Assembly (NCBI GenBank): GCA_963666345.1
Contig: OY762721.1
Coordinates: 896,001-960,000, forward strand
DNA length: 64,000 bases
DNA from: Desulfatiglandales bacterium
GTDB taxonomy: Bacteria; Desulfobacterota; DSM-4660; Desulfatiglandales; Desulfatiglandaceae
Reading direction: 5' to 3'
This document shows positions 34,928 to 52,231 of the stretch, in pieces (positions within the stretch are counted from its first letter, which is position 1; each line of letters starts with the position of its first letter). Below the pieces are notes generated by a model that was given only the letters and a program-made list of their open reading frames with translations, searched no databases and was not told the DNA's origin. Both the position numbers and the translations under genes were made by a program.

Positions 34928-34994
34928 AACAAATACCTCCTTTCATCTGATATCTTAAGCAAGGAATCACAAACAACCATTCCTTTCACATCTG

Positions 34995-35222: not shown

Positions 35223-35260
35223 ATATAACACCTCCTTTTAACTGGAATACAAAATGTTCA

Positions 35261-37650: not shown

Positions 37651-38580
37651 TCAAAGGGAGAGCATTCTGTTTACCGCGGCCCTTGCCCTTATACTTATCT
37701 CTTCGGGGACCCTCACCTCAGGTTCCAGATTTTCAAGGGCCATAACGGTTTCTTTAAGACCGGTCTTTTTCATATCAGTGCATATCATCCTGGTGTCGGC
37801 CGGGATGAAAATCTTGCCCGGGTTTTCTTTTGAAAGTGGATGAAGGATGCCTGTCTCAGTGCCTACTATAAACTCCTTTGCCTTGGAATCTCTGGCAAAT
37901 GCAAGCATGCCTGAAGTACTTTTTATCTCATCGGCCATATGGAGCACTTCAGGCGGACACTCCGGGTGAGCCATAAAAACGGCACCGGGATGCTCCTTTT
38001 TTATCCTTTTCACCTGTTCCGGCGACAGGTTGTTATGTATGGGACAAAAACCGCTCCAATAGCTGATATCCCTGTCTGTCTTCATTTTTGTATACTGTGC
38101 CAGATTCTTATCAGGGGTCATGTAGATCCTCTTTCGAGATTCCACGGAGTTTGCAACTGCAACCGCATTGGCGGACGTGCAGCAGATATCGCTCTCCGCT
38201 TTCACAGAAGCGGTTGTATTCACGTAACTTATCACTACGGCATCAGGCATATCACGCCTTTTCTCAATCAACTCTTCGGCCGAGATCATGTTAGCCATGG
38301 GACAACCCGCGTCCGCAACAGGAAGGATGACCTTCTTGTCCGGGCATAGGATCGAGGCGGTTTCGGCCATAAAATGGACCCCGCAAAAAACAATTACCTC
38401 CGCGTCCGTCTGAGAGGCCTTGATCGACAACTCAAGTGAATCACCGCAAAGATCCGCGATGTCCTGAAGTTCCGGTCTCTGGTAATTGTGAACGAGAAGA
38501 ATCGCCTTTCTGGCGGCAAGCCTATCCCTTATCTCTTTTTGAAGCACTCTTATTTCTTTATTCTCACTGAATGTTATCAT
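37651..38580 (-). CDS. nadA: Quinolinate synthase
   Basis: HNYQ, GDSLELS, FCGVHFMAETA, GCPMA, AHPEC, CTDMK. Confidence 0.96.
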   Translation of the reverse strand: MITFSENKEIRVLQKEIRDRLAARKAILLVHNYQRPELQDIADLCGDSLELSIKASQTDAEVIVFCGVHFMAETASILCPDKKVILPVADAGCPMANMISAEELIEKRRDMPDAVVISYVNTTASVKAESDICCTSANAVAVANSVESRKRIYMTPDKNLAQYTKMKTDRDISYWSGFCPIHNNLSPEQVKRIKKEHPGAVFMAHPECPPEVLHMADEIKSTSGMLAFARDSKAKEFIVGTETGILHPLSKENPGKIFIPADTRMICTDMKKTGLKETVMALENLEPEVRVPEEISIRARAAVNRMLSL

Positions 38581-38799
38581 CTTTAGTCCTGAACCCTTCC
38601 GTATATTTTCCGGTGCCCGGCCTTGAGGCATAATTTTTGGATAAAAATTTCATATAGTTGATATTGAGCCTACAAGTCAAGGCATTAGGCCGAAATTAAT
38701 CGGATTTTCCCTATTGTAAGGATGTTTTTCAGTCCTCAAAAACCGCCGCTGAAATAAATATACCTGGCCCCGGGCCTTTCAAGAAGACAGCTTGGGCAG

Positions 38800-38832
38800 A
38801 AAAAAGGAGAGGCAACCGCCTCTCCTTTTTTT
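38800..38832. terminator. Intrinsic terminator at the end of the transporter/OFOR operon
   Basis: aaaaaaggagaggc-aacc-gcctctcc-T-tract. Confidence 0.85.
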
Positions 38833-38868: not shown

Positions 38869-39849
38869 CTATTTCTTTTTGAGCTCCGAAAGTAGTCCTT
38901 TAAGGTATTTTTCCCTTTCCTGGAACATCTTTATTACCTGATCCCTTGTCATGGTCCTCTGCGGACTGCCGGTATTCTTCATCTGTTTTTTGACCTTTTT
39001 GTCCTCGAATATTTTCTGAAAAGCGGCAGCACACTTGTCGATTATATCCTGTGGCACACCCTTTGGAAAGGCAATGCCCCTGAAATTCACGCTTGAATCA
39101 TCAACGTCTATCCCTGCTTCCTTGAAGGTCTCTACATCAGGCAGGAATGAATGCCTTTCGAGATCCGCCACGCCCAGAATCTTTATGCGATCCTTGTTTC
39201 TGAAGGCATCTGAAAGGTTATTGAAACCGGCCTTTACTTTACCGGCGACCACAGACTGCATTGCAGGGGTACCGCCCTTTTCAGGGATATAGGTCATCTT
39301 GATCCCTGCTGCCTTTGAGAACTGCAGAAAGGCGATATGATGGCCCACGTACATTCCGGCCCCGTTTACGGTGACCTTTCCGGGGTTTGCCTTGGCATAC
39401 TTTACAACATCAACGATACTGTTGAAGGGACTGTCCGCAGGCACTATAAAAACCGCCGGATCCGCGCCCCAGTTGGCAACAGGCTCGAAGGTGTTGATAT
39501 CGTACTTGGTCTTGTAAACGATCGACTGGGCGATGAAATGGGGGACATTATATGCAGTCATGGTATAACCGTCTTTGGAACCCTTCTGAACTGTCCAGTT
39601 CCATCCGACCTGCCCGCCTGCCCCCGGCTTGTTGATAATGACGATAGGTTGCCCCAGATAATTTTCATCGGCCGCAACCATGGTTACGATCCTGGCCTGG
39701 AAATCGGTTGCACCTCCCGGTGAATATGCCACCACCATGCTTATGGGCTTATCAGGATACTCGGCCTGTACAGCCGAAGTCAGACCGAAAACAACTAATC
39801 CGATAATCAAAAAGACCTTTAAAAAAAATCCCAATTTGTCAGCTTTCAT
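38869..39849 (-). CDS. tctC: Tripartite tricarboxylate transporter substrate-binding protein (TctC/Bug)
   Basis: Signal peptide, YPDKPI, PGGATD, NKPGAGG, DGYT. Confidence 0.92.
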   Translation of the reverse strand: MKADKLGFFLKVFLIIGLVVFGLTSAVQAEYPDKPISMVVAYSPGGATDFQARIVTMVAADENYLGQPIVIINKPGAGGQVGWNWTVQKGSKDGYTMTAYNVPHFIAQSIVYKTKYDINTFEPVANWGADPAVFIVPADSPFNSIVDVVKYAKANPGKVTVNGAGMYVGHHIAFLQFSKAAGIKMTYIPEKGGTPAMQSVVAGKVKAGFNNLSDAFRNKDRIKILGVADLERHSFLPDVETFKEAGIDVDDSSVNFRGIAFPKGVPQDIIDKCAAAFQKIFEDKKVKKQMKNTGSPQRTMTRDQVIKMFQEREKYLKGLLSELKKK

Positions 39850-39931
39850 TTTCCCCTCCTTGATTTAATGGATAATTCCTGAACATTTGCCAATTACATC
39901 AGATTTCGTTTTATTAAGTCCGCCGAGCCCT

Positions 39932-40420
39932 CTAGATAAAAAGCCCCTGCGGTGTCTGAACGAGCAAAATCTTGCTGAAAAGCACATACAATACAGCCAT
40001 GAAAACAAAGGCGATTCCGACTCGAACAGCACCCTTTTTAAGACCCAGATCCTTTCTCCCAAGCGTGAAAGTTACCGCAATCATAAAGAGAAAAGCGGAG
40101 AAATAGAACCCGATTATTTCCATCACCCAGAAATAGACAATCACGAGGATAAAGGTGAATATCACTTTCACCCAGGGATAGGACATCGCGGAAGCCCTGT
40201 TTTTTTTGTCTTCAACGCTTGAGCCCTGAAGGGTCGCCCTGGCGCTTCCGCCCCTCAGAAGAAGTGACTGCATTAACAGGGCCAGGGAAAGCCCCGCCAT
40301 TATAATGATAAGAACCCTGGGAAAAGTCGCGGCCCTGGGATCATCGAAAAACGACAGAGACCAGTAAAGAGCGGCGCTTCCGGCAAGCACAATCAGAGAT
40401 ATAATTATATCGCGTTTCAA
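39932..40420 (-). CDS. tctB: Tripartite tricarboxylate transporter small subunit TctB
   Basis: Four TM segments, FPR and GF motifs, C-terminal PQG; inferred TTG start overlaps the tctA stop. Confidence 0.85.
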   Translation of the reverse strand: MKRDIIISLIVLAGSAALYWSLSFFDDPRAATFPRVLIIIMAGLSLALLMQSLLLRGGSARATLQGSSVEDKKNRASAMSYPWVKVIFTFILVIVYFWVMEIIGFYFSAFLFMIAVTFTLGRKDLGLKKGAVRVGIAFVFMAVLYVLFSKILLVQTPQGLFI

Positions 40421-41925
40421 ACCATTTTCTCCTTTGCCTTCCTGTATGACCTTATTTCTCCGTAGATGCTGTATCCTATCGAGGCGGCGCACAGCACGAT
40501 TATAACGACATTCATGGTGCCGGTGAAAAAATATGAAAATGCGCCCACATCGGTATCGGCAATCAGTTTACCCTTAAGGAAATTATCTTCGGCAATCGGA
40601 CCGAGTATGATTCCCAGCACAACCGGCGCCGCTGAAAAACCGAACTTGTTTCCGATATACATCAGTGTCCCCAGGCTGAACATGACTATAACGTCATCAA
40701 AGCTGTTCTGAACACTGTAGGTCCCGTAGACGGCAAGGACCGTAACCGCAGCGATCATATAGAGATTCGGAACGCTCATTACCATGTAGGAGTACCTTGA
40801 AAGAATAATCCCGAAAACGCACATGGCGACCTGAGCCAGTATAAGGCTGCCGATAAAGGTGTAGGTAACATCCGCGTTATTTATAAACAGATCAGGTCCG
40901 GGAAAAAGCCCATGGATGAGAAGCCCTCCCAACAGAACGGCCGCGGTAGGACTTCCAGGTATGCTCAGGGTAAGAAGGGGTATAAGAGAGGGGCCTACCA
41001 TCGCATTATTGGCCGACTCCGCCGCTGCAACCCCTTCCGGGTTTCCTTTGCCGAAAGATTCCGGCTTCTTTGAAAATTTCCTGTTCTGATCATAGGCGAT
41101 CAGACCTGAAACCTGACCGCCCGCGCCCGGGATGATACCGATTATAGAGCCCGTTACAGAACCTATACCGAGGGCTTTTACCATCTTGATATTCTGTATT
41201 AAGGTCTTTAAAAGTATACCCTTTTCAGGCTTGTAATTCGGCCTCTCAATTTGCACGTCCAGTTTTTCCGACAGGGAAAACACCTGGGGAATAGCAAAAA
41301 GCCCTATAAGTGCGGGCACGATCGCCACCCCTCCGGTAAGCACATCATGAAAGACAAAACGGGGGACCCCCAGCATCATGCTGTAGCCTATCGTACTGAT
41401 CAAAAGCCCGAACATTCCCCCGATGAGCCCCTTGGCAATCGATCCTGAAGCAAGCCCCGCCATTACCGTGACACCGAAGATGGCTATCCAGAACATCTCG
41501 GAAGGACCAAACTTGAGTGCTATCTTGGCCAGGGGCGGGGTAAAGAGCACCATCACGAGCATGCCGAAAAGCCCGCCTATCAGGGAACTTATAAAGCATA
41601 TGTAAAGGGCTGTCTGGGACTTGCCCTGCAGGGCCATTGGATGGCCGTCCAGCAGGGTTGCGATATTTGCCGGCGCCCCGGGGATATTTATGAGAATAGC
41701 CGAGATCGCCCCACCCGCCACTGTTGCCGTGTATACGGCACCCAGCAGGATAAGACCCGTCGCCGGCTGCATGTGAAAGGTGAAGGGTACCAGGAGAGCC
41801 ACAGCCATGGTGGGACTCAGGCCGGGCGTGGCTCCGAGGATCAGTCCTCCGATCACACCCATGATAAGGGTTATAAGATTGGTTAAGGTAAGTGCCTCGG
41901 GAAAATACTGTATAAGTTCTGCCAT
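40417..41925 (-). CDS. tctA: Tripartite tricarboxylate transporter large subunit TctA
   Basis: GATPGLS, NIPGAPA, GIIPGAGG, AAESANNA, LLTLSIPGS. Confidence 0.95.
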   Translation of the reverse strand: MAELIQYFPEALTLTNLITLIMGVIGGLILGATPGLSPTMAVALLVPFTFHMQPATGLILLGAVYTATVAGGAISAILINIPGAPANIATLLDGHPMALQGKSQTALYICFISSLIGGLFGMLVMVLFTPPLAKIALKFGPSEMFWIAIFGVTVMAGLASGSIAKGLIGGMFGLLISTIGYSMMLGVPRFVFHDVLTGGVAIVPALIGLFAIPQVFSLSEKLDVQIERPNYKPEKGILLKTLIQNIKMVKALGIGSVTGSIIGIIPGAGGQVSGLIAYDQNRKFSKKPESFGKGNPEGVAAAESANNAMVGPSLIPLLTLSIPGSPTAAVLLGGLLIHGLFPGPDLFINNADVTYTFIGSLILAQVAMCVFGIILSRYSYMVMSVPNLYMIAAVTVLAVYGTYSVQNSFDDVIVMFSLGTLMYIGNKFGFSAAPVVLGIILGPIAEDNFLKGKLIADTDVGAFSYFFTGTMNVVIIVLCAASIGYSIYGEIRSYRKAKEKMV

Positions 41926-42031
41926 AAAACAACTCTCATCCTGGATACTATGTTATGAGTTAAAATCATGATACAGCAGTCAGTGCGTCAAGGGTTGCGA
42001 CAATAATGCCTTAGGGCCGAATGTCACGGTA

Positions 42032-43573
42032 CTAACTCAACGCTTGTCCATTTTTTTTGACAATCTCCGGTAGCTTGAGGCGTTGAATCTTTCCCGAAGG
42101 GCCTTTGGGAAGTTCATCCATAATAACTATGAGCCTGGGTGTTTTGAAATCGCCCAGGTGCTTCTGACAATGAAGCCTTAGATCTTCCTCCGTAGTGCTT
42201 GAGCAGTCCGGCTTCAAAACAATGCAGGCCATTATCTCCTCGCCGTAGGCATCGTCCGGGATTCCCACGGCAGCCGCATCAAGCACGGAGGGATGCCTGT
42301 ACAGGGCATCATCTATCTCCCTTGGTGCTATGTTTTCACCTCCTTTTATTATGAGTTCCTTTATACGGCCCGTAACAAACACGAAACCGTCTTCATCCAT
42401 GTGACCTATATCTCCCGTGTGAAGCCATCCATCAGGCTCAAGGGCCTCTCTGGTCTTATCGGGAGACTTGTAATACCCCTTCATGACGTTGTCGCCTTTG
42501 ATCATAATCTCGCCGGGCGTATTTCTGGGGACCTCTTTACCTTCCTTGTTTACGATCTTGGCTATATTTCCCACTGCCTGACCGGGGGAGCCATATTTCA
42601 TTTTCGCCGGATCAAGGGGGTTTGAAAACACCGGGGCCGCCGTTTCCGTAAGCCCCATGGTTTCAACAATGGAGACGTTGAATTTTTTTTCGAACTCCTT
42701 ATGAAGCGAAGGTGGCAGCGCCGAGGAGGCGGAGCGCCCAAAACGAAGCTGAGCCAGGTTGTAGCCCTTTCCCTCTACCTCGGTGCCGCTCGTCAGATAC
42801 GAAATAATGGTAGGCACTACACTGAACCAGGTACATCGGTACTCTGAAATAAGTTCCCAGAAATTTGACGCACTGAACCTATGAGGCATAACAACGCTTC
42901 CCCCGCTTACAAGCGGAGTTACGGCCGTTACAACCTCGCCGTTGATATGATAGAGGGGAAGTGAGCAAAGCGCCCTGTCTGCAGGTGTAATCTCGTGGGC
43001 CATTGCCGTGTACTGACCCCCGGCAACCATATTTTTATGAGAAAGGATGACGCCCTTGGGAACACCGGTTGTGCCGGATGTGTATAGCATAAGCGCGTCA
43101 TCGTCTTCGCTAATCTCAGGTAATGTAAATGAAGAGAGGTCATCTCCCTCAGGGAAAATGACCTCTGAATCGTTGTCTATCTGAATCGTTTTTATATCAC
43201 GATTCACTTTCTTCAATGATGCCTCAAGCCTTTCTCTCTGATCTTCGGTGAAAAAGACCAGCCTCGTATCGGAGTGATCCAATACATATTCCAGCTGCGA
43301 AGGCTGGGCCAGAAGGTTTAGAGGCGCAATGACAAAACCTGAGTACATGGCGCCCAAAAATATCTTTGCAGTCTGATATCCGTTGGATAACATGAAAGAT
43401 ACCTTGTCGCCCTTTTCAAGGCCCAGCTTCATGAGCTGTTTACCTAAGGTTGCCGAATCTTTCTTCAACCGCCCGTATGTCAATTCCAGGCCAGGTTCAG
43501 GGGCGATCATAAAAATTTTATCAGGTTCCGCTTCAGCTCTATGGTCGATATAGTATCTTATGGTACGCATCAC
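42032..43573 (-). CDS. AMP-forming acid--CoA ligase, sulfoacetate-CoA ligase (SauT)/oxalate-CoA ligase-like
   Basis: YTSGTTGVPKG, PLYHING, ETMGLTE, PKGPSGKIQR; segment GYQTAKIFLGAMYSG..PLNLLAQPSQLEYVLDHSD resembles SauT as I recall it. Confidence 0.85.
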   Translation of the reverse strand: MMRTIRYYIDHRAEAEPDKIFMIAPEPGLELTYGRLKKDSATLGKQLMKLGLEKGDKVSFMLSNGYQTAKIFLGAMYSGFVIAPLNLLAQPSQLEYVLDHSDTRLVFFTEDQRERLEASLKKVNRDIKTIQIDNDSEVIFPEGDDLSSFTLPEISEDDDALMLYTSGTTGVPKGVILSHKNMVAGGQYTAMAHEITPADRALCSLPLYHINGEVVTAVTPLVSGGSVVMPHRFSASNFWELISEYRCTWFSVVPTIISYLTSGTEVEGKGYNLAQLRFGRSASSALPPSLHKEFEKKFNVSIVETMGLTETAAPVFSNPLDPAKMKYGSPGQAVGNIAKIVNKEGKEVPRNTPGEIMIKGDNVMKGYYKSPDKTREALEPDGWLHTGDIGHMDEDGFVFVTGRIKELIIKGGENIAPREIDDALYRHPSVLDAAAVGIPDDAYGEEIMACIVLKPDCSSTTEEDLRLHCQKHLGDFKTPRLIVIMDELPKGPSGKIQRLKLPEIVKKNGQALS

Positions 43574-43610
43574 GGTCGCTCCCCCTCAATTATTTAAAGT
43601 TAGCAACTAA

Positions 43611-44147
43611 TTACGTGGCCTTATAACTAAACCCCACCTCGAATGCCTCTCTGTTTCTGTTGTGAAATTTGGGAATGATGGCAAGGGTGCTCTCAAGAAC
43701 CTTGTCCTTTTCAAGCCCTTCCACCAGGTTCGCCATAAAGCCTAAAACTATGGTATTGGCAAAAAGTGCATTGTCGAATTTTTCCATAGACAACTCCTTT
43801 GCCGGAAATGAAATCTGTTTGCATTTCAGGCCTTCATCCACCTCATCCACAAAGGCGGGGTCATATATGATTACCCCTTCGTCAGGAACCGTATCCTTGA
43901 AACGTTTGTAGGCCGCGCTTGAAAGGGCGATAAAAAAGTCAGGAGCTTCACACATGGGACTGTCTATGATCTTTTCGGAAAGCACCACCTGACTCCTGAC
44001 ATAGCCTCCGCGCATTTCCGTTCCATGACTCTTGAGCATGGCCACATGGAGGCCCTGCTTCACTCCTGTCTCACCTATGATCTGGCCGAGCCTCACCACA
44101 CCCTGGCCGCCAAACCCGCTAGCAACGATTTCGACTCGATCTTTCAT
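43611..44147 (-). CDS. 2-oxoacid:acceptor oxidoreductase gamma subunit
   Basis: SGFGGQG, GTEMRGG, NTIVLG. Confidence 0.92.
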   Translation of the reverse strand: MKDRVEIVASGFGGQGVVRLGQIIGETGVKQGLHVAMLKSHGTEMRGGYVRSQVVLSEKIIDSPMCEAPDFFIALSSAAYKRFKDTVPDEGVIIYDPAFVDEVDEGLKCKQISFPAKELSMEKFDNALFANTIVLGFMANLVEGLEKDKVLESTLAIIPKFHNRNREAFEVGFSYKAT

Positions 44148-44998
44148 AATCTTCCCGTCCTCCTAATTTTCTCGACTGTGTCATGGACAAATTCATGGAA
44201 TTCAGGCCTTGAGTTGCTCTTATCATGCCAGATACCGCAGGCCCAGAAGGTATTCTCCTTTTCCTGGCCGAGAGGTGCGGCATGATCCTTGATCCAACGA
44301 TAGATATTCACCTGATTCCTGGAACCCAACTCCCTTGAGGCAAAGTTTGTAGGACAGGGATACGGCATATGCACAAGGGAAAACCCCTTGTTCTCGATTG
44401 CCTTTTTGACCGTCTCAACGGCCCATGCGCCGTCCATAGCCACATGACGTGCGAGAAAGGTTGCACCCGCCCCCTTGAGTATCTCCAGCACATCCATCCC
44501 CTCACTCATCAGATTGTGCTCAAACATCCCATAGGGGCTGCTGTCGGTATGGCTCCCCTGAGGCGTGGTCCATCCGTACTGGCCGCCGGTGGACTGATAG
44601 CCCAGATTATCATTGACTATAACGGTCATGTCGGCGTTCGATCTGGCAGCGTGAATCAGATGCATCAGCCCTATTCCAAAGGCATCTCCATCCCCGACCG
44701 TAAGTATTATCTTCTTTTCAGGCGGCAGCGCTATCCGCAACCCCCTTGCTATTGCGTAGGCCCTGCCGTGAGTTCCGGCAAAACCGTCTCCCAGCCATGT
44801 AGCAAAAGTTTGGCGCCCTGCGCATCCTATTGAGGTACCCCAAATCACGTCAGCCACTTCCAGCCCCAGCTCATTTACGGCGGTTACGACTATCTTGTGG
44901 TTCATACCTAATCCACAACCGGAACAGGCGGTACTGGGGATCTTTCTGGTACGCAGATATTTTGATATTAACTCTGATGATCTATATTCCATTACCAT
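44144..44998 (-). CDS. 2-oxoacid:acceptor oxidoreductase beta subunit (TPP-binding)
   Basis: CSGCG, SIGC, GDGD...NDN TPP motif, TGGQ, PCPT. Confidence 0.92.
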   Translation of the reverse strand: MVMEYRSSELISKYLRTRKIPSTACSGCGLGMNHKIVVTAVNELGLEVADVIWGTSIGCAGRQTFATWLGDGFAGTHGRAYAIARGLRIALPPEKKIILTVGDGDAFGIGLMHLIHAARSNADMTVIVNDNLGYQSTGGQYGWTTPQGSHTDSSPYGMFEHNLMSEGMDVLEILKGAGATFLARHVAMDGAWAVETVKKAIENKGFSLVHMPYPCPTNFASRELGSRNQVNIYRWIKDHAAPLGQEKENTFWACGIWHDKSNSRPEFHEFVHDTVEKIRRTGRL

Positions 44999-46167
44999 GC
45001 CTCCAATACCCAGCCCTTGCGTGTAAGGGGTTCGTTTTTAAGTATCTTTTCATATGTCTCAATGAGATCAGGGGTAGTCGGTAAATCCCCGCAGGTACCA
45101 AGGAATCTTATTTCCGAATCCTTGGGAGCCGCTCTCTGGACCTCACGCACCAGCTCACCGTCCCAGTTGAGCTCCACGGACAGATATTTGGCCTTCCTGG
45201 AAAAAAGCTCGTCCGGGAACGGCCAGATATTGATAAGACGGAGCGAACCCACTTTGAGTCCTTGCGACCTGGCCTTTTCCACGGAGGTATTTACAACCCT
45301 TGAAGGACTGCCGTAAGAAACAACAACCAGATCGGGATCATCATCCATAAATTTTTTCTCATAGTGGTGGTTGAATAGGTCCCTGTTGTTCCTGACCTTG
45401 TAGATGAGCCTGTAGGCATGCTTGTGGTGTGCATCCACCTCCTCGATATCATATCCTTCTACCGTCGGAGTCCAGTCCGAGCAGATCGCTCCCGTGTTGT
45501 GCCCCAACACGACAGGCGGGATATCCAGTTCATCGGTAAAGGGATAGAATTCCGGCCCCTGACAGACCTTTCTGGGCCAGATCCTGAATCCCATCTCGTT
45601 CATTTCATCTTCTGTCTCAGGCACACTTATATCCTCGAAACCGTCTGTTATAAGCTGGTCGGCAAGCACCATCACCGGCATACGGAATCTCTCTGAGAGA
45701 TAAAATGCCTCAACCACCATCTTCATGCATTCCTGCGCGCTGTTCGGTGCAAGACATATGGTCTCGAAATTCCCGCCCTGCGTGGGATACCTCATAAGAT
45801 AAAATTCACCCTGGCCGGGTGCTCCGGTAATACCGCTCACAGGACCGACACGCCCCGAATTAAGCACGACCAGAGGTGTCTCACATCCTAAGGCCCAGCC
45901 GAGCGGGTCCGCGTAAAGGATATAGCCTGGTCCTGAAGTTGCGGTCATGGCCTTGTAACCTCCCAGTGAGGCCCCCACGCACATATGGCAGGCCGCGCAC
46001 TCATCCTCGGCCTGCAGATATACGCCTCCCACCTGGGGCAACCTTAGACTCATAGCCTCGGCAAGCTCCGTTGCAGGCGTAATAGGATAACCTGAAAAGA
46101 ACCTGCACCCTGCTATGATGGCCCCCTCGGTTATTGCAAAATTTCCTGTTTCAAGATACCTTTTCAT
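44992..46167 (-). CDS. 2-oxoacid:acceptor oxidoreductase alpha subunit
   Basis: GYPITPATE, QAEDE, TATSGPG. Confidence 0.93.
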   Translation of the reverse strand: MKRYLETGNFAITEGAIIAGCRFFSGYPITPATELAEAMSLRLPQVGGVYLQAEDECAACHMCVGASLGGYKAMTATSGPGYILYADPLGWALGCETPLVVLNSGRVGPVSGITGAPGQGEFYLMRYPTQGGNFETICLAPNSAQECMKMVVEAFYLSERFRMPVMVLADQLITDGFEDISVPETEDEMNEMGFRIWPRKVCQGPEFYPFTDELDIPPVVLGHNTGAICSDWTPTVEGYDIEEVDAHHKHAYRLIYKVRNNRDLFNHHYEKKFMDDDPDLVVVSYGSPSRVVNTSVEKARSQGLKVGSLRLINIWPFPDELFSRKAKYLSVELNWDGELVREVQRAAPKDSEIRFLGTCGDLPTTPDLIETYEKILKNEPLTRKGWVLEAW

Positions 46168-46186
46168 ATCAGAAACCTCCTCTGTT

Positions 46187-47836
46187 TCATGCGGTTACAT
46201 CGATAACGTCAATGGCGAAATCAGGGCAGGAGAAATAACATTTAAAGCACCCGACACACCAGTCTGAGGACTTGACCTCGTTCGGCCTGTAGCCTTTTGC
46301 GTTAAAAAAGTCGGCAGGGCCGAAGGTCTCAACTCCGCAGACCTCGGAACAGTAACCGCATTCCTTGCAGTATTCGGTGTTGAGCACAACCTGGAATTTT
46401 CTGGCATCACAATTGAGGCATCTGCCCGCCTCTGCTTCTATCTGTTCATCTGTAAAACCACATTCGACCTGATCAAAACCGGAAGTACGCTCCCATGGTC
46501 TGAGAAGCTTCATCTCGTTTCTGGGCCTTATATCCAGGACGAATTCCTCGAGCATCACCTTGTCTTCCGGGGCGGCAAGGATTTCGGCAATTTCACCATC
46601 ACCGCCAAGGTAGCTGTCGATGGCGGAGGCCGCCTTTCTGCCGTGAGCTATGGCGTTTATTATGGAATCCGGCCCTGTAACGACATCGCCGCCGGCAAAC
46701 ACGCCCTTTTCACCTGTAGAGAGATCCTGCTCATTTGCCTTGACCCTGTTTCCGCTTGTATCGACCTGTTTTTCCCCTTTCAGGTATGTCAGGTCGGAAA
46801 CCTGACCGACAGCCAGTATGACATTCCCGGCATCCACCTTTTCAGAGATCTCTTCATCGTAGGTCGGATTAAAGTTACATGCATTGTCGAATACGGATGT
46901 GCATTTTATCAGACCTAAGCCTGTGACTTCGTCATCACCCAGTATCTTTTTGGGGGCCCATGAATTGTTGATACTAACCCCTTCTTCTTCTGCACGCGCT
47001 ATTTCCCACTCATGAGCGGGCATCTCTTCCCGTGACTCCAGACAGAACAGGTACACGTTTTTCGCACCAAGCCTCTTTGCCGTCAGAGCCACGTCGATGG
47101 CCACGTTACCGCCGCCTACTACAACCACATCCCCCTCAAAGGAAATATCTTTTTCAAGCCCTATGTCAGAGAGGAAATCCCATCCCCATAGGACCCCTTT
47201 TTTGTCGGAGCCCTCAAGAGGTATTTTTATGCTGCCGCTGGCACCGCTCGCCAGGAATGTGGCGTCATATTCCTTTTTGAGCTGCTCCATACCGACATCC
47301 TTACCCACTGTAGTGTTTCCCTTGAAAGCCACTCCGAGCTCGAATATGTCGTTGATATCCTTGTCCAGTCTTTCCTCAGGCAGCCTGTAATTGGGGATAC
47401 CGTAACGCATGGCCCCACCCGGTTTGGGAAACGAATCAAATATCGTAACTTCATGCCCCTTGGTCGCAAGGTAATATGCGGATGTAAGACCGGCCGGGCC
47501 GGACCCGACAACAGCAACTTTTTTCCCCGTTTTTTCAGCAATCTTTTTATTTTTCTTCCAGCCGTCCCCTCCTTTGTCAACAGCCGCCCTCTTTATCGCG
47601 CGAATAGCTATCGAGTCTCCGAACTGTTTGTAAGCACACACCTCTTCGCAGGGAGCAAAACAGGCATCGGCACAAACAGTTGGGAGAGGGAGCTTTTCGC
47701 GCAGCACAGCCACTGCGTCATCATACCGTTTGTCTTTAACAGCACGGATGTACCTTGGCACGTCCACGCCTGCGGGACATGCTTCTGTACAACGTGGAAC
47801 GATAAATTTTTTTCTTTCAACATGTACTACGCCCAT
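46187..47836 (-). CDS. GltD-like FAD/NAD(P)H Fe-S oxidoreductase fused to a 2x[4Fe-4S] OFOR delta-type domain
   Basis: CTEACP, CADACFAPCEEVC, GSGPAG, GGGNVA, AGGD, EAGRCLNC, then CKECGYCSEVC and CVGCFKCYFSCPDFAI. Confidence 0.9.
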   Translation of the reverse strand: MGVVHVERKKFIVPRCTEACPAGVDVPRYIRAVKDKRYDDAVAVLREKLPLPTVCADACFAPCEEVCAYKQFGDSIAIRAIKRAAVDKGGDGWKKNKKIAEKTGKKVAVVGSGPAGLTSAYYLATKGHEVTIFDSFPKPGGAMRYGIPNYRLPEERLDKDINDIFELGVAFKGNTTVGKDVGMEQLKKEYDATFLASGASGSIKIPLEGSDKKGVLWGWDFLSDIGLEKDISFEGDVVVVGGGNVAIDVALTAKRLGAKNVYLFCLESREEMPAHEWEIARAEEEGVSINNSWAPKKILGDDEVTGLGLIKCTSVFDNACNFNPTYDEEISEKVDAGNVILAVGQVSDLTYLKGEKQVDTSGNRVKANEQDLSTGEKGVFAGGDVVTGPDSIINAIAHGRKAASAIDSYLGGDGEIAEILAAPEDKVMLEEFVLDIRPRNEMKLLRPWERTSGFDQVECGFTDEQIEAEAGRCLNCDARKFQVVLNTEYCKECGYCSEVCGVETFGPADFFNAKGYRPNEVKSSDWCVGCFKCYFSCPDFAIDVIDVTA

Positions 47837-47921
47837 AATTTAATAATCCTCCTCATATTATTAGACAAACAGAACTCCCACACCTTACTGTCTACAAATT
47901 TCGAGATCCCGATTAAAAAAG

Positions 47922-47937
47922 AGCAAGAAAGATGCCA
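47922..47937 (-). promoter_or_regulatory. Sigma-54 (-24/-12) promoter
   Basis: Minus strand TGGCAT-CTTTC-TTGCT, ~85 bp upstream of the operon and next to an enhancer-binding protein gene. Confidence 0.85.
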
Positions 47938-48086: not shown

Positions 48087-48104
48087 TGTCCGATATTGCG
48101 GACA
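48087..48104. promoter_or_regulatory. Putative upstream activator sequence
   Basis: Perfect TGTCCG-N6-CGGACA ~150 bp above the sigma-54 promoter; related TTTCCG-N6-CGGACA at 48432-48449. Confidence 0.6.
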
Positions 48105-48534
48105 CCTTTTTATCCATTGCAATAATTTATTTCAGGAAGAGAAGGGGTAAATAGAGATATGACCGATATAAACCAAGGGAAAGAGAAAAGGCAGATTCAG
48201 AGGCTTCCTGTAAAAATGTTCGGAACCGGGTCAGAAAACCATGTTGTTTATTGTAAAGTATCTTGACACAAAGTCAAATTCTCCGACATGAAAATGGGTC
48301 CGCATTGGAGCGCTTTACTACTTCCTCATAAAGGAACCAAGCATATAGGATCATCTTTTTTATAATAAAACCAACGTCTTTTCAAAGTTGGTCTCTATTC
48401 ATTACAACAAATTTATTATCCTCAAAGACCGTTTCCGGAATTTCGGACACATTTTAAACCTTTCTTTGGTCACTCAATCCGATTTTTTCCAGATTAGAAG
48501 GAACTTTTCTAAGAATCCACATTTGGCCGATCCA

Positions 48535-49998
48535 TCACAGATTATGTTTTTTACATTTTTCGTAAAGAGTTGAACGGGACAGTCCAAGGACTCTGGCGGT
48601 CCTGGCCATATTGCCCCCGGAAAATTTTATCGCCTGGGAAAGCAGTTCCTTCTCATATCTGTCCATTTCCCTTGAAAAAGGCTTTATTTTTTCAGACCTG
48701 GGTCTTTCAAATGTTCCCTTAAAACAGATTAGTTCCGGGGGAAGGTGCTCCGGCCCGATAACCTTTCCCTCTGCCAGACTCACCGCCCTTAAGACAACGT
48801 TTTTAAGCTCTCTTATATTACCGGGCCATGGGTATGCCTGCATGATCTTAAGGGCGTCCTCACTGAACCTGATACCAGGTCTTTCAATGGAGGAGAGGAA
48901 ATGCTCCACCAATTCAGGGATATCATCAGGTCTCTCGGAAAGAGAGGGTATCACGACACTCATGGTGTTCAACCGGTAGAACAGATCGTCCCTGAATTCT
49001 TTTCTGCTTATCATCTCCCTTAAATCCCTGTTGGTCGCAGCCACCAGCCTGAAATCGACCTTAACGGTCTTAAGGCCTCCCAGCTTTTCGATCTTTTTTG
49101 TTTCAAGGACCCTGAGCAATTTGGCCTGGGCGCTCAAAGGCAGGTCCCCTATCTCATCAAGGAACAGGGTTCCCCCGTGGGAAAGCTCTATCTTTCCCGC
49201 CTTGCCCTTCGGTCTTGCACCGGTAAAGGCACCGGTTTCATAGCCGAACAGTTCCGATTCAAGGAGTTCTCTTGGAATGGCGGCGCAGTTTACACAGACA
49301 AAGCTTCCGTTTCTTCTCCAACTTGCCTTATGTATGGCATGAGCAAAAAGCTCCTTTCCGCTGCCGGTTGCCCCTAGAACAAGGACTGAGGCATCTGTCT
49401 TGGCATACTTGGCAGCCATCTTTTTCGCCTCAACAAGCAGCCTGGTATTGCCTAAAATTGATTCGAAGCTGTACGTTGCCGAAAGAAGGCTGTCAAGGCC
49501 TCGTTTGTAATATTTCAACTCTCTTTCCAGCAGATTAAGCCTCTCCATCAGCTCGTTTATTTCGGTATGGTTCTTGAAGATGGTCTGAAGTACGACCCCC
49601 ACTGTCTCGTCCCCGCTCTTTATCGGTATTCGGTTGACAAGCAAGGCCACATTTGATCTCAGACTGCAGCGCTGCCCGATTTCCATTTTACCGCTTTCAA
49701 GAACCGACGGTATCCTGGAGGAGGGAAAATATTTCTTTATGTGTCTTCCGACCGCCTCGTTTTTATCCGTCCCTAGCAACTCTCCATAAAACCTGTTCAT
49801 GTAGAGGATCCTGGAATCGCTGTCGCATAGGATTATCCCTGAATAGACATTTTCCATTATCAACTCAAGGACTGAAGCGAAATCCTTCATACTTCCGTTA
49901 AGGCCGCCAGCCTTAAGCTCTATGGCAGGCTGAAACTGGAGACTGGATCGGCAGAAATTGATATCTGAAGATGTCCTGGAATTATCGACTGATGACAT
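48535..49998 (-). CDS. PAS-domain sigma-54 enhancer-binding protein (Fis HTH)
   Basis: PAS region, [29 protein letters not shown]-terminal HTH; true start may be downstream (MKDF). Confidence 0.95.
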
Positions 49999-50619
49999 AA
50001 GCTTGATATTCCCTCCTATTTTGAATCACCAGGGTAGGGGTTCAAAATATCTGAAACAGGGGCGGAAAATTCTCAATCGTAAAAGGGCAAGGATATCCTT
50101 CTTACCTATTTAAACATTAGTAAAATGCAATCACAGGTGTCAATTTAAAACAGGCGGGGCTTTATGGCCCGGGTATTCACCAACAGCCCTGTTTATCATC
50201 GTACAGGCGCAGGTACAGGGGCTTTTTCTTTGCTCCGCTACGCTACGCCCAGTCCCACTAATGCTCAGCGGGTTCCCGGTTTCTGCAGACATTGTCTCAC
50301 AAAAAAAAGCCGCTGGAAATTCCAGGGGACGGAGCGTACAGGCTGCAACGGCCGGGTGAATGCCTCATTGAGTTCACCCGCGGGCAAAGGCGAACAAATC
50401 CTTGAATGGGTTATTTTAAATCAACGACAGCAAAATTTACTTGACATAAGAATACTTATAGATTTATTTATCAGATATCAATTACCAAAAAAATTACAAT
50501 TCGTAAATCAACCAGCTGATATTTCTGGTTTTTTTATTGCCCCAGCTTATATCATTGGAGATATAAGAACACCATAGCTGGGTCCGATCCACCACGAATA
50601 TTATAATAGGAGGGATAAC

Positions 50620-51519
50620 ATGGTAGAAGCAAAAGCGATTGAAACGGGCAGCAATTGGGATATGGACTTTGATCTGTGCCTGGATGACGTGGCCCTTGCA
50701 AAAAAGGTCCTTGAAAGCGCCCAACAAAACGGAGGAAAAATCAGTGATGCAGGGATAGTCTTTGCATTGAGAAACATCCTCAAGATGAAATATTATCCTG
50801 TCGCGGTAAAGTATTTTTTTGACGAAAAAGAGCTTGAAGACTTTAAGAACAATACCGAATACAAGGTGTCCCTGCACCCTGTCACCTTCTGCGCCTATGT
50901 TGCGGCAAGCAGGCAGAGGGGGGACATCCTCCTTGGCACAGCCGATAAGCTAGGTTGCTCCAATGCCAAATTCGTCATGAAATGGAAGGAAATTGATGAC
51001 GGCGAGATAAAGAGCCATCTCAAATACACAAAGGACTGGGATCAGGCGGAAAGATTCGTAAAGACCAAAAAGAGACTTCCCAAGGAACCGCTGGCCTTTG
51101 CCACCGCACCCCTTCACAAGGCACCCTTCAAACCGGATCTGATCCACGGCATGTGCGATACCCTCCAGTCATATCATCTTGCAAACGACTGGGATGCCGC
51201 CTTCGACAACCATCCCTTTGAGATGACTATGACCATGAATTCCTCCATATGCCACGGCTGTGTCCAGTGTTTTGTTACGGAGAAATTCAATGTAACCCAG
51301 ATGTGCAGCAGCAGCTATACGGCGGGAAAAACCGAACAGGGCGAGATCAACTGGATTATGCCCTATGATCAGATGGAACCCACAGTCCACTGGATGCTCG
51401 AGCGCACCGTCCGTGACGGAGGGGTGTCCTTCCCCAGGACAGGTGAGACATATCCCGGCTTTGACATCTGCAAGCTGTGCCCCTTCCTGACATTTAAAAA
51501 ACCCAAAAAGGAAAAATAA
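50620..51519 (+). CDS. DUF169-family Cys-rich protein
   Basis: YPVAVKY, TFCAYV..SR, LGCSNA, PDL, SICHGC, GE pattern; GGAGG RBS. Confidence 0.75.
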   Translation: MVEAKAIETGSNWDMDFDLCLDDVALAKKVLESAQQNGGKISDAGIVFALRNILKMKYYPVAVKYFFDEKELEDFKNNTEYKVSLHPVTFCAYVAASRQRGDILLGTADKLGCSNAKFVMKWKEIDDGEIKSHLKYTKDWDQAERFVKTKKRLPKEPLAFATAPLHKAPFKPDLIHGMCDTLQSYHLANDWDAAFDNHPFEMTMTMNSSICHGCVQCFVTEKFNVTQMCSSSYTAGKTEQGEINWIMPYDQMEPTVHWMLERTVRDGGVSFPRTGETYPGFDICKLCPFLTFKKPKKEK

Positions 51520-51675
51520 GCGGAGCGAAATCTCCCCAAACTCATGAAGTCCCCAGGCTCAATATCTCCTGTTGACCTCCTCCCCTGGGGGCTTGAATTG
51601 AACATCCCCGGTATTTTTGCTTAACCGATTTTCTTCTCTTCTGTTCCATGAAAATTCTCACAGGAGACAAATCAG

Positions 51676-52155: not shown

Positions 52156-52231
52156 ATCTCAGCCCCCTGTCTTTCGGCAAAGAGGTGTTTATCTAATTAC
52201 CATACAATATCTTTGACAAGGATTTCCAGTA

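Follow-up and report, generated by a model that had tools for sequence, protein, structure and literature searches.

The locus raises the question of which compound is processed by an operon that combines an OFOR complex, a SauT-like CoA ligase and a TTT importer. It lies in a 64,000-nucleotide stretch of Desulfatiglandales contig OY762721.1, hereafter the window, from a sediment bacterium that reduces sulfate. The operon most likely handles the C2 organosulfonate sulfoacetate through an unusual NAD(P)-linked enzyme with TPP and iron-sulfur clusters instead of the known degrading enzymes. A literature search found no paper describing such an operon or OFOR route.

Organization and Control of the Operon

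Eight co-oriented minus-strand ORFs fill positions 38869-47836, and ORF, Pfam and fold data bear out the arrangement of eight genes between a promoter element and a terminator given in the preliminary description. The operon is self-contained, with a -24/-12 element on one side, a strong hairpin on the other and the gene for a PAS/sigma-54 activator upstream. The features are, in the direction of transcription:

48535..49998, minus strand: sigma-54 enhancer-binding activator with PAS sensor, AAA+ sigma-54 interaction domain and Fis-type HTH (Pfam)
48087..48104, minus strand: palindrome TGTCCGCAATATCGGACA, candidate activator binding site (UAS; read from the sequence and by regular expression)
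47923..47937, minus strand: -24/-12 sigma-54 promoter element TGGCATCTTTCTTGC, TGGCAT-N5-TTGC (pattern and context)
46187..47836, minus strand: NfnB/GltD-like NAD(P)H-FAD flavoprotein with N-terminal 2x[4Fe-4S] and a fused C-terminal 2x[4Fe-4S] OFOR delta-type ferredoxin domain (PF14691, PF07992, PF13187)
44992..46167, minus strand: OFOR alpha, TPP pyrimidine-binding domain and domain II (PF01855, PF17147)
44144..44998, minus strand: OFOR beta, TPP diphosphate-binding domain with four Cys for a proximal [4Fe-4S] (PF02775)
43611..44147, minus strand: OFOR gamma (PF01558, 109 bits)
42032..43573, minus strand: AMP-forming acyl-CoA ligase, SauT-like, proposed sulfoacetate-CoA ligase (PF00501, PF13193)
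40417..41925, minus strand: TctA-type large membrane subunit (PF01970, 439 bits)
39932..40492, minus strand: TctB-type small membrane subunit (PF07331 on residues 30-181)
38869..39849, minus strand: TctC-type periplasmic binding protein, SauZ-like (PF03401)
about 38798..38830, minus strand: intrinsic-terminator-like hairpin GGAGAGGC-GGTT-GCCTCTCC followed by a T (U) run (sequence and fold)

Of 42 related loci, defined by a ligase of at least 62% identity, 20 have a homologue of the activator (PF00158 with 224 bits, PF00989 PAS, PF02954 HTH_8) upstream of the cluster, at 52-65% identity. The palindrome, 268 nt before the first start codon, has an imperfect second copy at 48432-48449, and nine of 26 orthologous loci have TGTC-N10-GACA palindromes between -223 and -268; we infer that it is the activator site. 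The promoter element lies 101 nt before the first start codon. Its bare pattern, with at most one mismatch, is found 3 times in the window against 3.3 expected, which is not above chance. The element is nevertheless credible because the activator gene lies directly upstream, the genome encodes rpoN (433 bits, cut-off 277) and orthologous loci have a similar element between -86 and -147, 11 of 26 with a relaxed pattern and 6 of 26 with a strict one. The promoter earlier called clear thus stands on position, activator, rpoN and conservation, and not on the pattern by itself. The terminator hairpin folds with -32.6 kcal/mol (z = -6.45; none of 200 shuffles as good), although a simple terminator scanner does not flag it. 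Metatranscriptome contigs 95-99% alike, from four marine-sediment runs of one study, cover 38911-47230 and span the gene junctions, as far as these were checked.

Importer and Ligase

The nearest non-deltaproteobacterial relatives of both TctC (58-61% identity) and the ligase (44-52%) sit in TctABC-SauS-SauT or sauRSTU-type clusters. The four best plasmid matches of TctC are 58-61% identical and the next 35% or less. All four records have a SauT-like ligase match within 2.5 kb, and inspection of two of these loci showed the order LacI / TctA TctB TctC / aldehyde dehydrogenase / AMP-binding. TctA is 60% identical to that of one SauS-SauT cluster (L035). The listed GTG start of TctB overlaps the end of TctA by 76 nt, and the true start is probably downstream. 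The TTT-type SauZ of Bilophila wadsworthia binds sulfoacetate with a Kd of 0.13 uM, as reported in PMC10413351. TctC, compared here with these relatives of about 60% identity, is proposed as a candidate sulfoacetate binder; its distance from them weighs against a firm assignment of the ligand. Together, the clusters of these relatives and the SauZ binding data given in PMC10413351 narrow the importer of the preliminary description to the sulfoacetate type.

The ligase is 44-52% identical to ligases adjoining SauS; its plasmid matches comprise 11 at 44-48%, then one step at 41%, then 38% or less. The aldehyde dehydrogenases beside related ligases pass the NCBIfam SauS equivalog (cut-off 600 bits) in four of four cases tested, with 731, 653, 800 and 684 bits, and one related locus (H5) has the order IclR-SauS-ligase-MFS, that of sauRSTU. 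In a quick tree with few outgroups, OFOR-linked and SauS-linked ligases form one clade (SH-aLRT 99) apart from the other ANL ligases sampled, so the likeness to SauT noted before holds in this tree. Among solved structures the ligase is nearest to oxalate-CoA ligases (298 bits) and malonyl-CoA ligase/synthetase, not to fatty-acid ligases. Judged by sequence relationships, transporter and ligase are both orthologous to their counterparts in the sulfoacetate system.

An OFOR Clade of Its Own

The OFOR subunits miss every NCBIfam equivalog cut-off. The best models give 321 bits for alpha (cut-off 411; PDB matches 1yd7, 8ys5, 6n2n), 147 for beta (cut-off 364; aligned to 8ys5_C and 5b46_B) and 107 for gamma (cut-off 235). 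Neither a fatty-acid ligase nor a standard 2-oxoglutarate or pyruvate OFOR, the findings that would have spoken against the initial reading, was thus encountered. The flavoprotein is closest to solved structures of NfnB type (9n5u, 8oh5_C, 4ylf_B) and gives 472 bits to PRK12771 (cut-off 516); its residues 478-544 match NF042987 OGOR_delta.

The clade is tight, with 65-91% identity within it (81-91% for alpha across main-clade loci) and next relatives at 45% or less, and its substrate loops carry changes that are invariant. Among 301 genomes sampled evenly across the phylum, seven, including the window's own, have an alpha match of at least 65%, and the next best reaches 45%. In the clade alignment (33 loci rows plus the window, two rows being outgroups), alpha keeps YPITP and Arg106 and has the clade-specific loop RVGPVSGITGAPGQG, while beta has the clade-specific ACSGCG, GCAGRQT and NDNLGYQSTGGQ. 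Of the two motif divergences pointed out before, ACSGCG is invariant among aligned clade members, one outgroup row having ACPGCG, and AEDECAACH of alpha is conserved in part only. Its first and third Cys recur in the main clade only, the subclade of 69-73% identity having T and A there, and the middle Cys is found in three aligned rows; because of this patchy recurrence it is not a conserved CxxCxxC cluster motif.

Active-site positions were mapped using PMC5020499 and the structure and clade alignments. Where StOFOR has its pocket for the substrate side chain, the clade has invariant residues that are polar or positive (beta Arg62, Gln135, Ser136; alpha Ser111), a point for the reading preferred below. 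The residues responsible for binding the carboxylate of the 2-oxoacid in StOFOR and DaPFOR (PMC5020499), Thr30 of YPITP and Arg106, are strictly conserved. This counts against the preferred reading and is at least equally compatible with a genuine 2-oxoacid (sulfopyruvate) enzyme.

Gene Neighbourhoods and a Proposed Second Route

The slot of SauS in related clusters is filled here by the four genes for the flavoprotein-ferredoxin fusion and OFOR alpha, beta and gamma. This GltD-alpha-beta-gamma set is directly upstream of the ligase in 28 of the 42 loci, with truncated versions in three more. In the 69-73% subclade (L081 and L083) it is followed by a SauS-like dehydrogenase, whose best model is SauS (525 and 521 bits, below the cut-off), and by a class III aminotransferase; L083 has in addition GntR and a taurine-type ABC importer. 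In metagenome contigs, OFOR gamma (with beta and alpha where the contig allows) is directly upstream of the SauS-like gene in 12 of 13 loci having this gene at 78% identity or more and an upstream stretch of at least 700 nt. One locus (L093) combines ligase, OFOR, SauS-like gene and aminotransferase. This sister context would be a second route to sulfoacetyl-CoA. Strict co-localisation and the ligase-free SauS-like/aminotransferase context of the same OFOR clade indicate that ligase and OFOR share one acyl-CoA, as the preliminary description had supposed. Within 8 kb of the OFOR genes, no other gene family is shared by more than 5 of the 45 OFOR loci.

Some observations count against the preferred reading. 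In the second context the SauS-like proteins stay under the SauS cut-off, the ligase has no neighbouring OFOR in five genomes, two of which gave no alpha orthologue (MAGs of unknown completeness), and in one locus (L042) the 8 kb 5' of the ligase are without OFOR.

Known Sulfonate Enzymes

The window's own genome is complete (4.16 Mb) and encodes DsrA. Profile scores stay below the cut-offs for Xsc (best 330 bits, cut-off 676) and SauS (best 32 bits), so that the absence of sauS and xsc, noted before for the adjacent genes, extends to the entire genome. It also has no PFL-like glycyl radical enzyme, ComE, Ldh_2 family protein or CuyA-like protein. Among the 27 cluster-bearing genomes (the window's own and 26 others), SauS passes its cut-off in none and Xsc in five. 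PFL-like enzymes are found in 15 of the 26 others, and in eight of the 26 both Xsc and PFL-like enzymes are missing. Four dehydratases of the UxaA/GarD family are encoded in the window's own genome, and two of these, which are of the split SuyAB-like type, adjoin beta-hydroxyacid dehydrogenases and LarA-like proteins. The family is present in 21 of the 26 others and absent from five, one of which is 97% complete.

Proposed Pathway and Alternatives

Our best explanation as a whole, to which we give a probability of about 0.4, is sulfoacetate catabolism under sigma-54/PAS-activator control in a DsrAB-bearing sulfate/sulfite reducer. Its parts differ in strength: we consider it quite probable that the OFOR complex consumes sulfoacetyl-CoA and probable that sulfoacetate is the substrate, while a reductive desulfonation that is driven by NAD(P)H and yields acetyl-CoA and sulfite is a tentative proposal. 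By orthology, TctABC (a TTT system of SauXYZ type) would import sulfoacetate and the SauT-like AMP-forming ligase would convert it to sulfoacetyl-CoA. Gene context suggests that this ester is the substrate of the four-gene complex, in which alpha/beta/gamma with TPP and a proximal [4Fe-4S] would be wired via the fused delta-ferredoxin domain to the NfnB/GltD-like FAD/NAD(P)H module. The complex would take the place held by SauS, with downstream Xsc and Pta, in the described pathways. It may run the first half of the reverse OFOR reaction: sulfoacetyl-CoA and TPP would give sulfoacetyl-TPP and CoA, and two electrons from NAD(P)H would yield 1-hydroxy-2-sulfoethylidene-TPP, the enamine that Xsc makes from sulfoacetaldehyde. 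The enamine would expel sulfite, and CoA would thiolyse the remaining acetyl-TPP, just as it does when an OFOR runs in its normal forward direction (net: sulfoacetyl-CoA + NAD(P)H -> acetyl-CoA + sulfite + NAD(P)+). The released sulfite could be the electron acceptor for DsrAB. The partial reactions are precedented in pyruvate synthase/PFOR and Xsc. To our knowledge, known NAD-linked OFORs are all oxidative, which we count against this proposal.

The main rival, which takes up the sulfopyruvate example of the preliminary description and which we consider unlikely, is a sulfopyruvate synthase that reductively carboxylates sulfoacetyl-CoA to 3-sulfopyruvate, followed either by sulfolactate and a SuyAB-like lyase giving pyruvate and sulfite or by transamination to cysteate. 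It agrees with the invariant carboxylate site, the descent of the enzyme from 2-oxoglutarate/2-oxoacid OFORs, the split SuyAB-like dehydratases with their neighbours and the spread of the UxaA/GarD family. However, this family is missing from five cluster genomes, no Ldh_2, CuyA-like or ComE protein is encoded in the window's own genome, and none of sulfolactate dehydrogenase, SuyAB and CuyA recurs near any of the 45 OFOR loci. All loci keep an NAD(P)H-type flavoprotein as their electron module, and the operon encodes no bifurcation partner. Reductive carboxylation of an acyl-CoA driven by NAD(P)H costs about +30 kJ/mol or more and is not feasible, whereas reductive C-S cleavage can be driven by NAD(P)H. 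We rank desulfonation above sulfopyruvate synthesis because the latter is thermodynamically unfavourable with such a module; in addition, a beta-sulfonated TPP enamine should tend to lose sulfite, as in Xsc.

The opposite direction, oxidation, is thermodynamically the natural one for an NAD(P)-linked OFOR; NADH-dependent phenylglyoxylate dehydrogenase is an example. A sulfopyruvate:NAD(P)+ oxidoreductase would then form sulfoacetyl-CoA, the ligase would run backwards (AMP + PPi -> ATP) and sulfoacetate would be excreted, with SauS forming sulfoacetaldehyde instead in the second subclade. The conserved carboxylate site and the reductive direction known for SauS (from PMC10413351) fit this scheme, which we nevertheless regard as very doubtful. 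Binding-protein-dependent importers in both contexts, SauZ-like TTT and the taurine-type ABC system of L083, indicate uptake of sulfoacetate or taurine and not of a C3 sulfonate; the operon has no sulfolactate dehydrogenase and the genome neither SauS nor a sulfoacetaldehyde consumer; and excretion would waste sulfite that a DsrAB organism can respire. Little probability also goes to a different small anionic acid such as malonate, oxalate or 3-sulfopropionate, with the OFOR acting on a matching pair (for example, oxaloacetate/malonyl-CoA) and the sulfonate link a coincidence of shared ancestry. The ligase's nearest solved structures would suit this, an identity of 44-52% to SauS-linked ligases does not suffice to define its specificity and no NCBIfam equivalog is passed. 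Against it, the nearest outside relatives of TctC and of the ligase, two independent proteins, are in both cases found in SauS clusters, with a sharp identity gap to all else, and the SauS-like dehydrogenase, aminotransferase and L083 taurine-type importer tied to the sister OFOR subclade indicate a C2 sulfonate and not a dicarboxylate. That the OFOR merely replaces SauS, whose slot it occupies, and releases free sulfoacetaldehyde for desulfonation by another enzyme is highly improbable. Xsc and PFL-like enzymes are at hand in 5 and 15 of the 26 other genomes, but the window's own complete genome and eight others have neither, and a SauS-like enzyme beside the OFOR in the second subclade would be redundant.

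Comparison with Known Systems

Kor-type 2-oxoglutarate/2-oxoacid OFORs (1yd7, 8ys5, 6n2n, 5b46) share the alpha/beta/gamma(/delta) composition, TPP motifs, four Cys and YPITP with Arg. The window OFOR differs from them by missing all equivalog cut-offs, by identities of 45% or less to other OFORs of the phylum, by GPVSG for GPSTG in alpha and YQST for YG(L/M)T in beta, by fusion of delta to the flavoprotein and by constant linkage to enzymes proposed to make sulfoacetyl-CoA. With NfnB/GltD/DPD-type flavoproteins (9n5u, 8oh5_C, 4ylf_B, 5jca_L, 2vdc_G) the fused flavoprotein shares the N-terminal 2x[4Fe-4S] and FAD/NAD(P)H domains, but the operon has no NfnA-type partner and an OFOR delta-type ferredoxin domain is fused at the C-terminus. 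Phenylglyoxylate dehydrogenase PadEFGHI (NF045762/64/66) likewise joins an OFOR core to GltD-like FAD and ferredoxin-like subunits, a set-up whose redox partner is NAD(P)(H) and not free ferredoxin. The window proteins score 24-49 bits to the Pad models (cut-offs 300-700), flavoprotein and delta are one polypeptide and the proposed direction is reductive.

In Xsc (TIGR03457), TPP-bound 1-hydroxy-2-sulfoethylidene expels sulfite and leaves acetyl-TPP, the same chemistry as proposed here. Xsc, whose TPP-dependent C-S cleavage is cited in PMC10413351, belongs to a different protein family, starts from the aldehyde with no redox input and yields acetyl phosphate, whereas the window enzyme would start from the CoA ester, take two electrons and yield acetyl-CoA. 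Compared with the sauRSTU/Xsc pathway of Cupriavidus necator H16 and SauXYZ-SauCD-SauS-TauF-IseG of B. wadsworthia, as outlined in PMC10413351, the operon has a four-gene NAD(P)-linked OFOR in the place of SauS, is without SauS, Xsc, TauF and IseG, and is controlled by sigma-54 and a PAS activator instead of IclR, LacI or GntR. A point in common with these pathways is that the sulfite formed would be useful to a sulfite reducer.

Organization and control of the operon

Eight tightly packed genes occupy positions 38869–47836 of the minus strand (ORF calls; Pfam and NCBIfam assignment), all co-oriented as the preliminary description had stated. They encode a GltD-delta flavoprotein, the alpha, beta and gamma subunits of an OFOR, a SauT-like AMP-forming acyl-CoA ligase and the TctA, TctB and TctC components of a TTT transporter. 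The last ~70 residues of the flavoprotein form an OFOR delta-type two-cluster ferredoxin (NCBIfam). The remainder of the window carries mainly housekeeping genes.

Features of the operon and its flanks
31624–33366, minus strand: YcaO domain fused to TPR repeats
34445–35485, plus strand: ORF of 346 aa, with no Pfam or NCBIfam match
35821–37539 and 37651–38631, minus strand, 3' of the operon: quinolinate synthase NadA and a group II PLP decarboxylase
Operon gene 1, minus strand: GltD/NfnB/DPD-type flavoprotein of 549 aa with two [4Fe-4S] clusters and FAD/NAD(P)H domains (Pfam, NCBIfam)
101 nt 5' of the first start codon, minus strand: candidate sigma-54 element TGGCATCTTTCTTGC (sequence pattern)
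48535–49998, minus strand, upstream of the operon: sigma-54 activator gene (PAS/AAA+/HTH)
50164–55410, plus strand, divergent from the activator gene: DUF169 protein, then a three-gene [2Fe-2S]/FAD/molybdopterin enzyme of the xanthine dehydrogenase/aldehyde oxidase family

The candidate element fits GG-N10-GC with TGGCA/TTGC. Taken by itself the pattern does not exceed chance (3 matches in the window, 3.3 expected) and was rejected as a measure of significance, so that the promoter announced as clear owes its support to context: the gene for an enhancer-binding protein, the presence of RpoN in the genome, and sigma-54-like elements at comparable distance in 6 of 26 orthologous loci with a strict pattern or 11 with a relaxed one. 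With these attributes the operon qualifies as a predicted sigma-54-dependent operon. Nine of the 26 loci have TGTC-N10-GACA palindromes between about -223 and -268; that of the window is at -268. The strong terminator noted beforehand was borne out by folding: a hairpin rich in GC and bearing a U run lies 3' of TctC (-32.6 kcal/mol, z = -6.45), though a simple terminator scanner gave no call there.

With the PanP aspartate 1-decarboxylase model the group II PLP decarboxylase reaches 517 bits, under the cut-off of 606. A PanP homologue (72–75%) follows the cluster in only 2 (L001 and L018) of the 42 loci whose ligase is at least 62% identical to that of the window. We therefore read its position as lineage synteny and leave it and NadA outside the pathway. 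The PanP-like protein may have a cysteate or cysteine-sulfinate decarboxylase role.

Expression

Metatranscriptome contigs 95–99% alike to the window, from four marine-sediment runs of one study, cover positions 38911–47230. They bridge the TctC-TctB-TctA, TctA-ligase, ligase-gamma, gamma-beta, beta-alpha and alpha-GltD junctions; contigs of this kind are no proof that one transcript spans the operon, and DNA may be present in RNA libraries. The habitat is read from the runs after setting aside those with small word shares (X10–X17). The NadA and activator genes have almost no contig cover, an absence that carries no meaning. All four runs have one base fewer at position 42051, among the final ligase codons, so that close relatives end this protein differently; its best database relative has 510 aa versus 513 aa in the window.

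The ligase and its importer

The ligase has the ANL two-domain architecture (Pfam PF00501, 272 bits; PF13193, 69 bits). A scan of species genomes with it led to 55 loci. In two of them, both non-deltaproteobacterial, the ligase (52% identical in L035, 47% in L034) adjoins an aldehyde dehydrogenase whose score exceeds the NCBIfam equivalog cut-off for SauS, the acylating sulfoacetaldehyde dehydrogenase (731 and 653 bits, cut-off 600); L035 also holds a phosphotransacetylase. Plasmids give 11 matches at 44–48%, with a drop to 41% and to 38% or less after these. The gene order is IclR-SauS (800 bits)-ligase-MFS at plasmid locus H5 and LacI-SauS (684 bits)-ligase-TctCBA at plasmid locus H1. Identity to SauS-linked ligases is 44–52%, against 41% and 38% or less for the rest. 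In a quick ML search (50 rows, only 7 outgroup ANL ligases), 36 deltaproteobacterial ligases, 6 SauS-linked ones and that of L071 share one branch (SH-aLRT 99) apart from the 7 other ANL ligases, in agreement with the likeness to SauT, the sulfoacetate-CoA ligase, proposed beforehand. Among solved structures, oxalate-CoA ligases and malonyl-CoA synthetase come closest, which places the protein in the family branch that activates small dianionic acids and not fatty acids. The genomic partnership of SauT with SauS is absent from its own genome and from 26 related genomes. We propose that the protein is a sulfoacetate-CoA ligase, its relatives making sulfoacetate the probable substrate.

The transporter gene set is complete (TctA, TctB and TctC; Pfam PF01970, PF07331, PF03401). 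TctC gives four plasmid matches at 58–61% and the next at 35% or less. All four lie within 2.5 kb of a SauT-like ligase match on the same record, and the two inspected loci hold LacI, TctA TctB TctC, an aldehyde dehydrogenase and an AMP-binding protein. In L035, TctA and TctC are 60% and 59% identical to those of the window. TctC thus ranks as an ortholog of the TctC of SauS/SauT clusters, with predicted binding of sulfoacetate. According to the source (JBC 2023, PMC10413351), the TTT system SauXYZ of Bilophila imports sulfoacetate, with a Kd of 0.13 uM for SauZ, ITC with this ligand having been performed on B. wadsworthia SauZ only. SauZ homologues of alpha-, gamma- and delta-proteobacteria are linked there to SauT or SauCD and "nearly all" are accompanied by SauS; the words ferredoxin and oxoacid are absent from the paper.

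The OFOR complex and its genomic linkage

The OFOR set comprises alpha (POR_N, PFOR_II), beta (TPP_enzyme_C, CxxC...C...C), gamma (POR) and the delta-type ferredoxin. By its scores it differs from the standard 2-oxoglutarate and pyruvate enzymes, which formed part of the outcome named beforehand as unfavourable: alpha, beta and gamma score 321, 147 and 107 against NCBIfam equivalog cut-offs of 411, 364 and 235, and pass none of those for 2-oxoglutarate, pyruvate, VOR, IOR, oxalate and phenylglyoxylate OFORs, the Pad, oxalate and Por models giving far lower scores still. The nearest solved chains belong to Kor-type enzymes (1yd7, 8ys5, 6n2n, 5b46).

GltD-alpha-beta-gamma lies directly upstream of the ligase in 28 of the 42 loci, with three more cut by a contig end. 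TctA is found 3' of the ligase in 26 of them and an activator homologue upstream of the cluster in 20, while an MFS transporter replaces TctABC in four. The redox module is NfnB/GltD-like, of NAD(P)H type, and fused to delta in all loci. Alpha is 81–91% identical among loci of the operon-type main clade. Of 301 genomes sampled evenly across the phylum, only 7, the own one included, have an alpha match of at least 65%, the next best being 45%. A clade at 42–45% (L074, L075) was dropped as a functional guide for its unrelated context (CoA transferase and AFOR; RACo). Compared with the SauS-bearing clusters, the OFOR complex stands in the place of SauS.

Several loci show variations. In one lineage (L022, L023, L029, L030) a D-isomer 2-hydroxyacid dehydrogenase of 416 aa lies upstream of the activator gene in all four cases. 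Three of these loci, and L033, have a homologue of the 2-hydroxyglutaryl-CoA-dehydratase D-component just upstream of the cluster. L082 (G323:C23:134000-153900) has a main-clade OFOR (alpha 83%) and the activator gene with no ligase directly after. The OFOR is followed by a biotin carboxyl carrier, biotin carboxylase, a PYC_OADA-type carboxyltransferase, three BKACE and a 3-hydroxyacyl-CoA dehydrogenase; some 20 kb beyond, the same contig carries ligase-TctABC, with a TauE-family gene and an amidase close by (L014). An Anaerolineales-binned contig (L004) carries the cluster with OFOR subunits 90–92% and ligase 82% identical, this ligase being nearly identical to that of a Desulfobacteraceae MAG (L003); either mis-binning or a recent transfer might account for this.

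A probable second feeding route

A sister group of the main clade, at 69–73% alpha identity, is found in L036, L073, L072, L081 and L083. In L036 and L073 the OFOR is again followed by a ligase. In L081 and L083 the next gene encodes an aldehyde dehydrogenase with SauS as best model (525 and 521 bits, missing the cut-off of 600), and the one after it a class III aminotransferase; L083 alone adds GntR and an ABC system with the TauABC taurine transporter as best models, all under cut-offs. A metagenome scan with the OFOR-linked SauS-like protein gave 45 loci. Thirteen combine a SauS-like gene at least 78% identical with 700 nt or more of sequence upstream of it, and in 12 (the exception is L087) OFOR gamma, with beta and alpha where the contig allows, lies directly upstream of this gene. 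Five SauS-like loci at 73–77% with room upstream have no OFOR there. On metagenome contig L093 (2333–11352), a ligase (72%), GltD, alpha, beta, gamma, a SauS-like dehydrogenase and a class III aminotransferase follow one another, placing both contexts beside one OFOR. SauS-like matches in genomes G321, G312 and G317 (365–500 bits) were dropped, having no link to an OFOR and 36–43% identity to the OFOR-linked protein.

These contexts suggest two feeding routes that meet one OFOR clade. The ligase would convert sulfoacetate to sulfoacetyl-CoA; alternatively, an aminotransferase would convert an amino-sulfonate to sulfoacetaldehyde, and an acylating dehydrogenase this to sulfoacetyl-CoA, the only metabolite common to the two predicted routes. 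The earlier idea that ligase and OFOR converge on one acyl-CoA gains from this sharing of the clade by ligase-linked and SauS-like-linked contexts. Since both routes start with binding-protein-dependent importers, the OFOR most probably consumes sulfoacetyl-CoA, as a sink and not a source.

Known desulfonation enzymes in the genomes

The known anaerobic enzymes of C-S cleavage are Xsc (sulfoacetaldehyde acetyltransferase), SuyAB and the glycyl radical enzymes. The lack of sauS and xsc noted beside the operon extends to the whole own genome, a single 4.16 Mb contig (SauS, best 32 bits; Xsc, TIGR03457, best 330 bits versus 676). This genome also has no PFL-like glycyl radical enzyme, ComE, Ldh_2-type dehydrogenase or CuyA-like lyase; DsrA is present.

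Desulfonation-related families in 26 further cluster-bearing genomes (matches over cut-off; MAG completeness mostly unknown)
SauS: 0/26
Xsc: 5/26
PFL-like enzymes: 15/26
UxaA/GarD family: 21/26

Neither Xsc nor a PFL-like enzyme is found in 8 of the 26 genomes or in the own genome, and no further gene family occurs within 8 kb in more than 5 of 45 OFOR loci. Two observations count against a desulfonating role of the OFOR complex: two of five genomes with a stand-alone ligase gave no alpha orthologue, and the own genome encodes four UxaA/GarD-family proteins (family-level assignment), two of them split like SuyAB and adjoining beta-hydroxyacid dehydrogenases and LarA-like proteins. The split type occurs in two clusters that may serve DHPS/sulfolactate routes. 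L067 (G000:C1:787001-799500) has TRAP DctQM, an aldehyde:ferredoxin oxidoreductase, a HIBADH-like dehydrogenase and small and large dehydratase subunits, then GntR, a sulfatase and a homologue of LarA scoring above the cut-off of the malate-racemase model LarAH5 (542 bits versus 462). L066 (G000:C1:3909001-3921000) has an aldehyde dehydrogenase, a HIBADH-like dehydrogenase, AcnX, small and large dehydratase subunits and a Lar_N protein.

Active site, proposed reaction and alternatives

The active site was mapped with the structurally characterised StOFOR (PMC5020499), alignments to 5b46_B and 8ys5, and a clade alignment of 33 loci rows per subunit plus the window, two rows being outgroups. Alpha keeps GYPITP (Thr30) and Arg106; every row has the arginine, and a single row departs from YPITP (YTLTP), this Thr and Arg being carboxylate-site residues according to the same source. 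The side-chain pocket positions are polar or positive and clade-invariant: beta Arg62 at the position of StOFOR Lys49b, beta Gln135-Ser136 in place of Gly-Leu123b (YQSTGGQ versus YGLTKGQ or YGMTGGQ) and alpha Ser111 at that of Thr349a (RVGPVSGITG versus RSGPSTG). Such a pocket would suit a -CH2-SO3- side chain, without telling carboxylation and elimination apart. An extra Fe-S cluster on the alpha motif CAACHMC was rejected: the middle Cys occurs in only 3 rows, T and A replace the two outer Cys in the 69–73% subclade, and in solved homologues the three positions align with Ile/Ile/Ala or similar.

We privilege, tentatively and with a probability of about 0.4, the hypothesis that GltD-delta/alpha/beta/gamma reductively desulfonates sulfoacetyl-CoA to acetyl-CoA and sulfite. 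The OFOR would run half-way backwards: sulfoacetyl-CoA would be loaded on TPP as acyl-TPP, two NAD(P)H-derived electrons would reduce it to hydroxyalkylidene-TPP, sulfite would leave from an Xsc-type enamine or a one-electron ketyl-type radical, and the remaining acetyl-TPP would be thiolysed by CoA to acetyl-CoA, one enzyme acting in place of SauS, Xsc and Pta. In Xsc, sulfite is expelled from the same hydroxyalkylidene-TPP that sulfoacetyl-CoA would give, and acetyl-TPP is a normal OFOR intermediate thiolysed by CoA. Acetyl-CoA would give 8 [H], 2 for desulfonation and 6 for sulfite reduction, a balance that fits a complete oxidiser.

NAD(P)H cannot drive the carboxylation of an acyl-CoA, whereas it can drive reductive C-S cleavage. 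The conserved NAD(P)H-type module, these energetics and the shared intermediates of Xsc and OFORs rank desulfonation first among five readings. The same module makes a sulfopyruvate synthase, which would carboxylate sulfoacetyl-CoA, unlikely, although the D-isomer 2-hydroxyacid dehydrogenase beside the cluster in L022, L023, L029 and L030 would speak for it if it acts on sulfolactate/sulfopyruvate. The importers at the head of both routes, pointing to a sink, argue against an oxidative sulfopyruvate oxidoreductase paired with a reversed ligase, which we find improbable, and we hold it equally doubtful that ligase and OFOR handle another small acid. That the complex merely replaces SauS, in whose place it stands, ranks last and is very improbable.

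Significance and comparison with known systems

If the desulfonation hypothesis is correct, the enzyme activity itself would be new. It would constitute a further mechanistic class of desulfonation, oxygen-independent and without a glycyl radical, and a new reaction of the OFOR superfamily, reductive elimination instead of carboxylation. In sulfate reducers of sediments it would serve sulfoacetate as well as, through the SauS-like dehydrogenase, substrates of the taurine type, and the genes would provide a marker set for sulfoacetate/taurine respiration by complete-oxidising sulfate reducers of marine sediments. The more conservative sulfopyruvate synthase, if correct, would be an undescribed link of C2 and C3 sulfonate metabolism. 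In its available parts, the literature searched connects no OFOR with sulfoacetyl-CoA, sulfoacetate or the breakdown of taurine.

As regards an NfnAB-type bifurcating transhydrogenase, the operon has an NfnB-like part, and Pfam finds no NfnA-like FAD/[2Fe-2S] partner among its genes. OFOR beta has only the TPP domain in common with Xsc (TIGR03457) and may work like this enzyme without being a member of its family. The operon departs from the known sulfoacetate pathways as a new variation.
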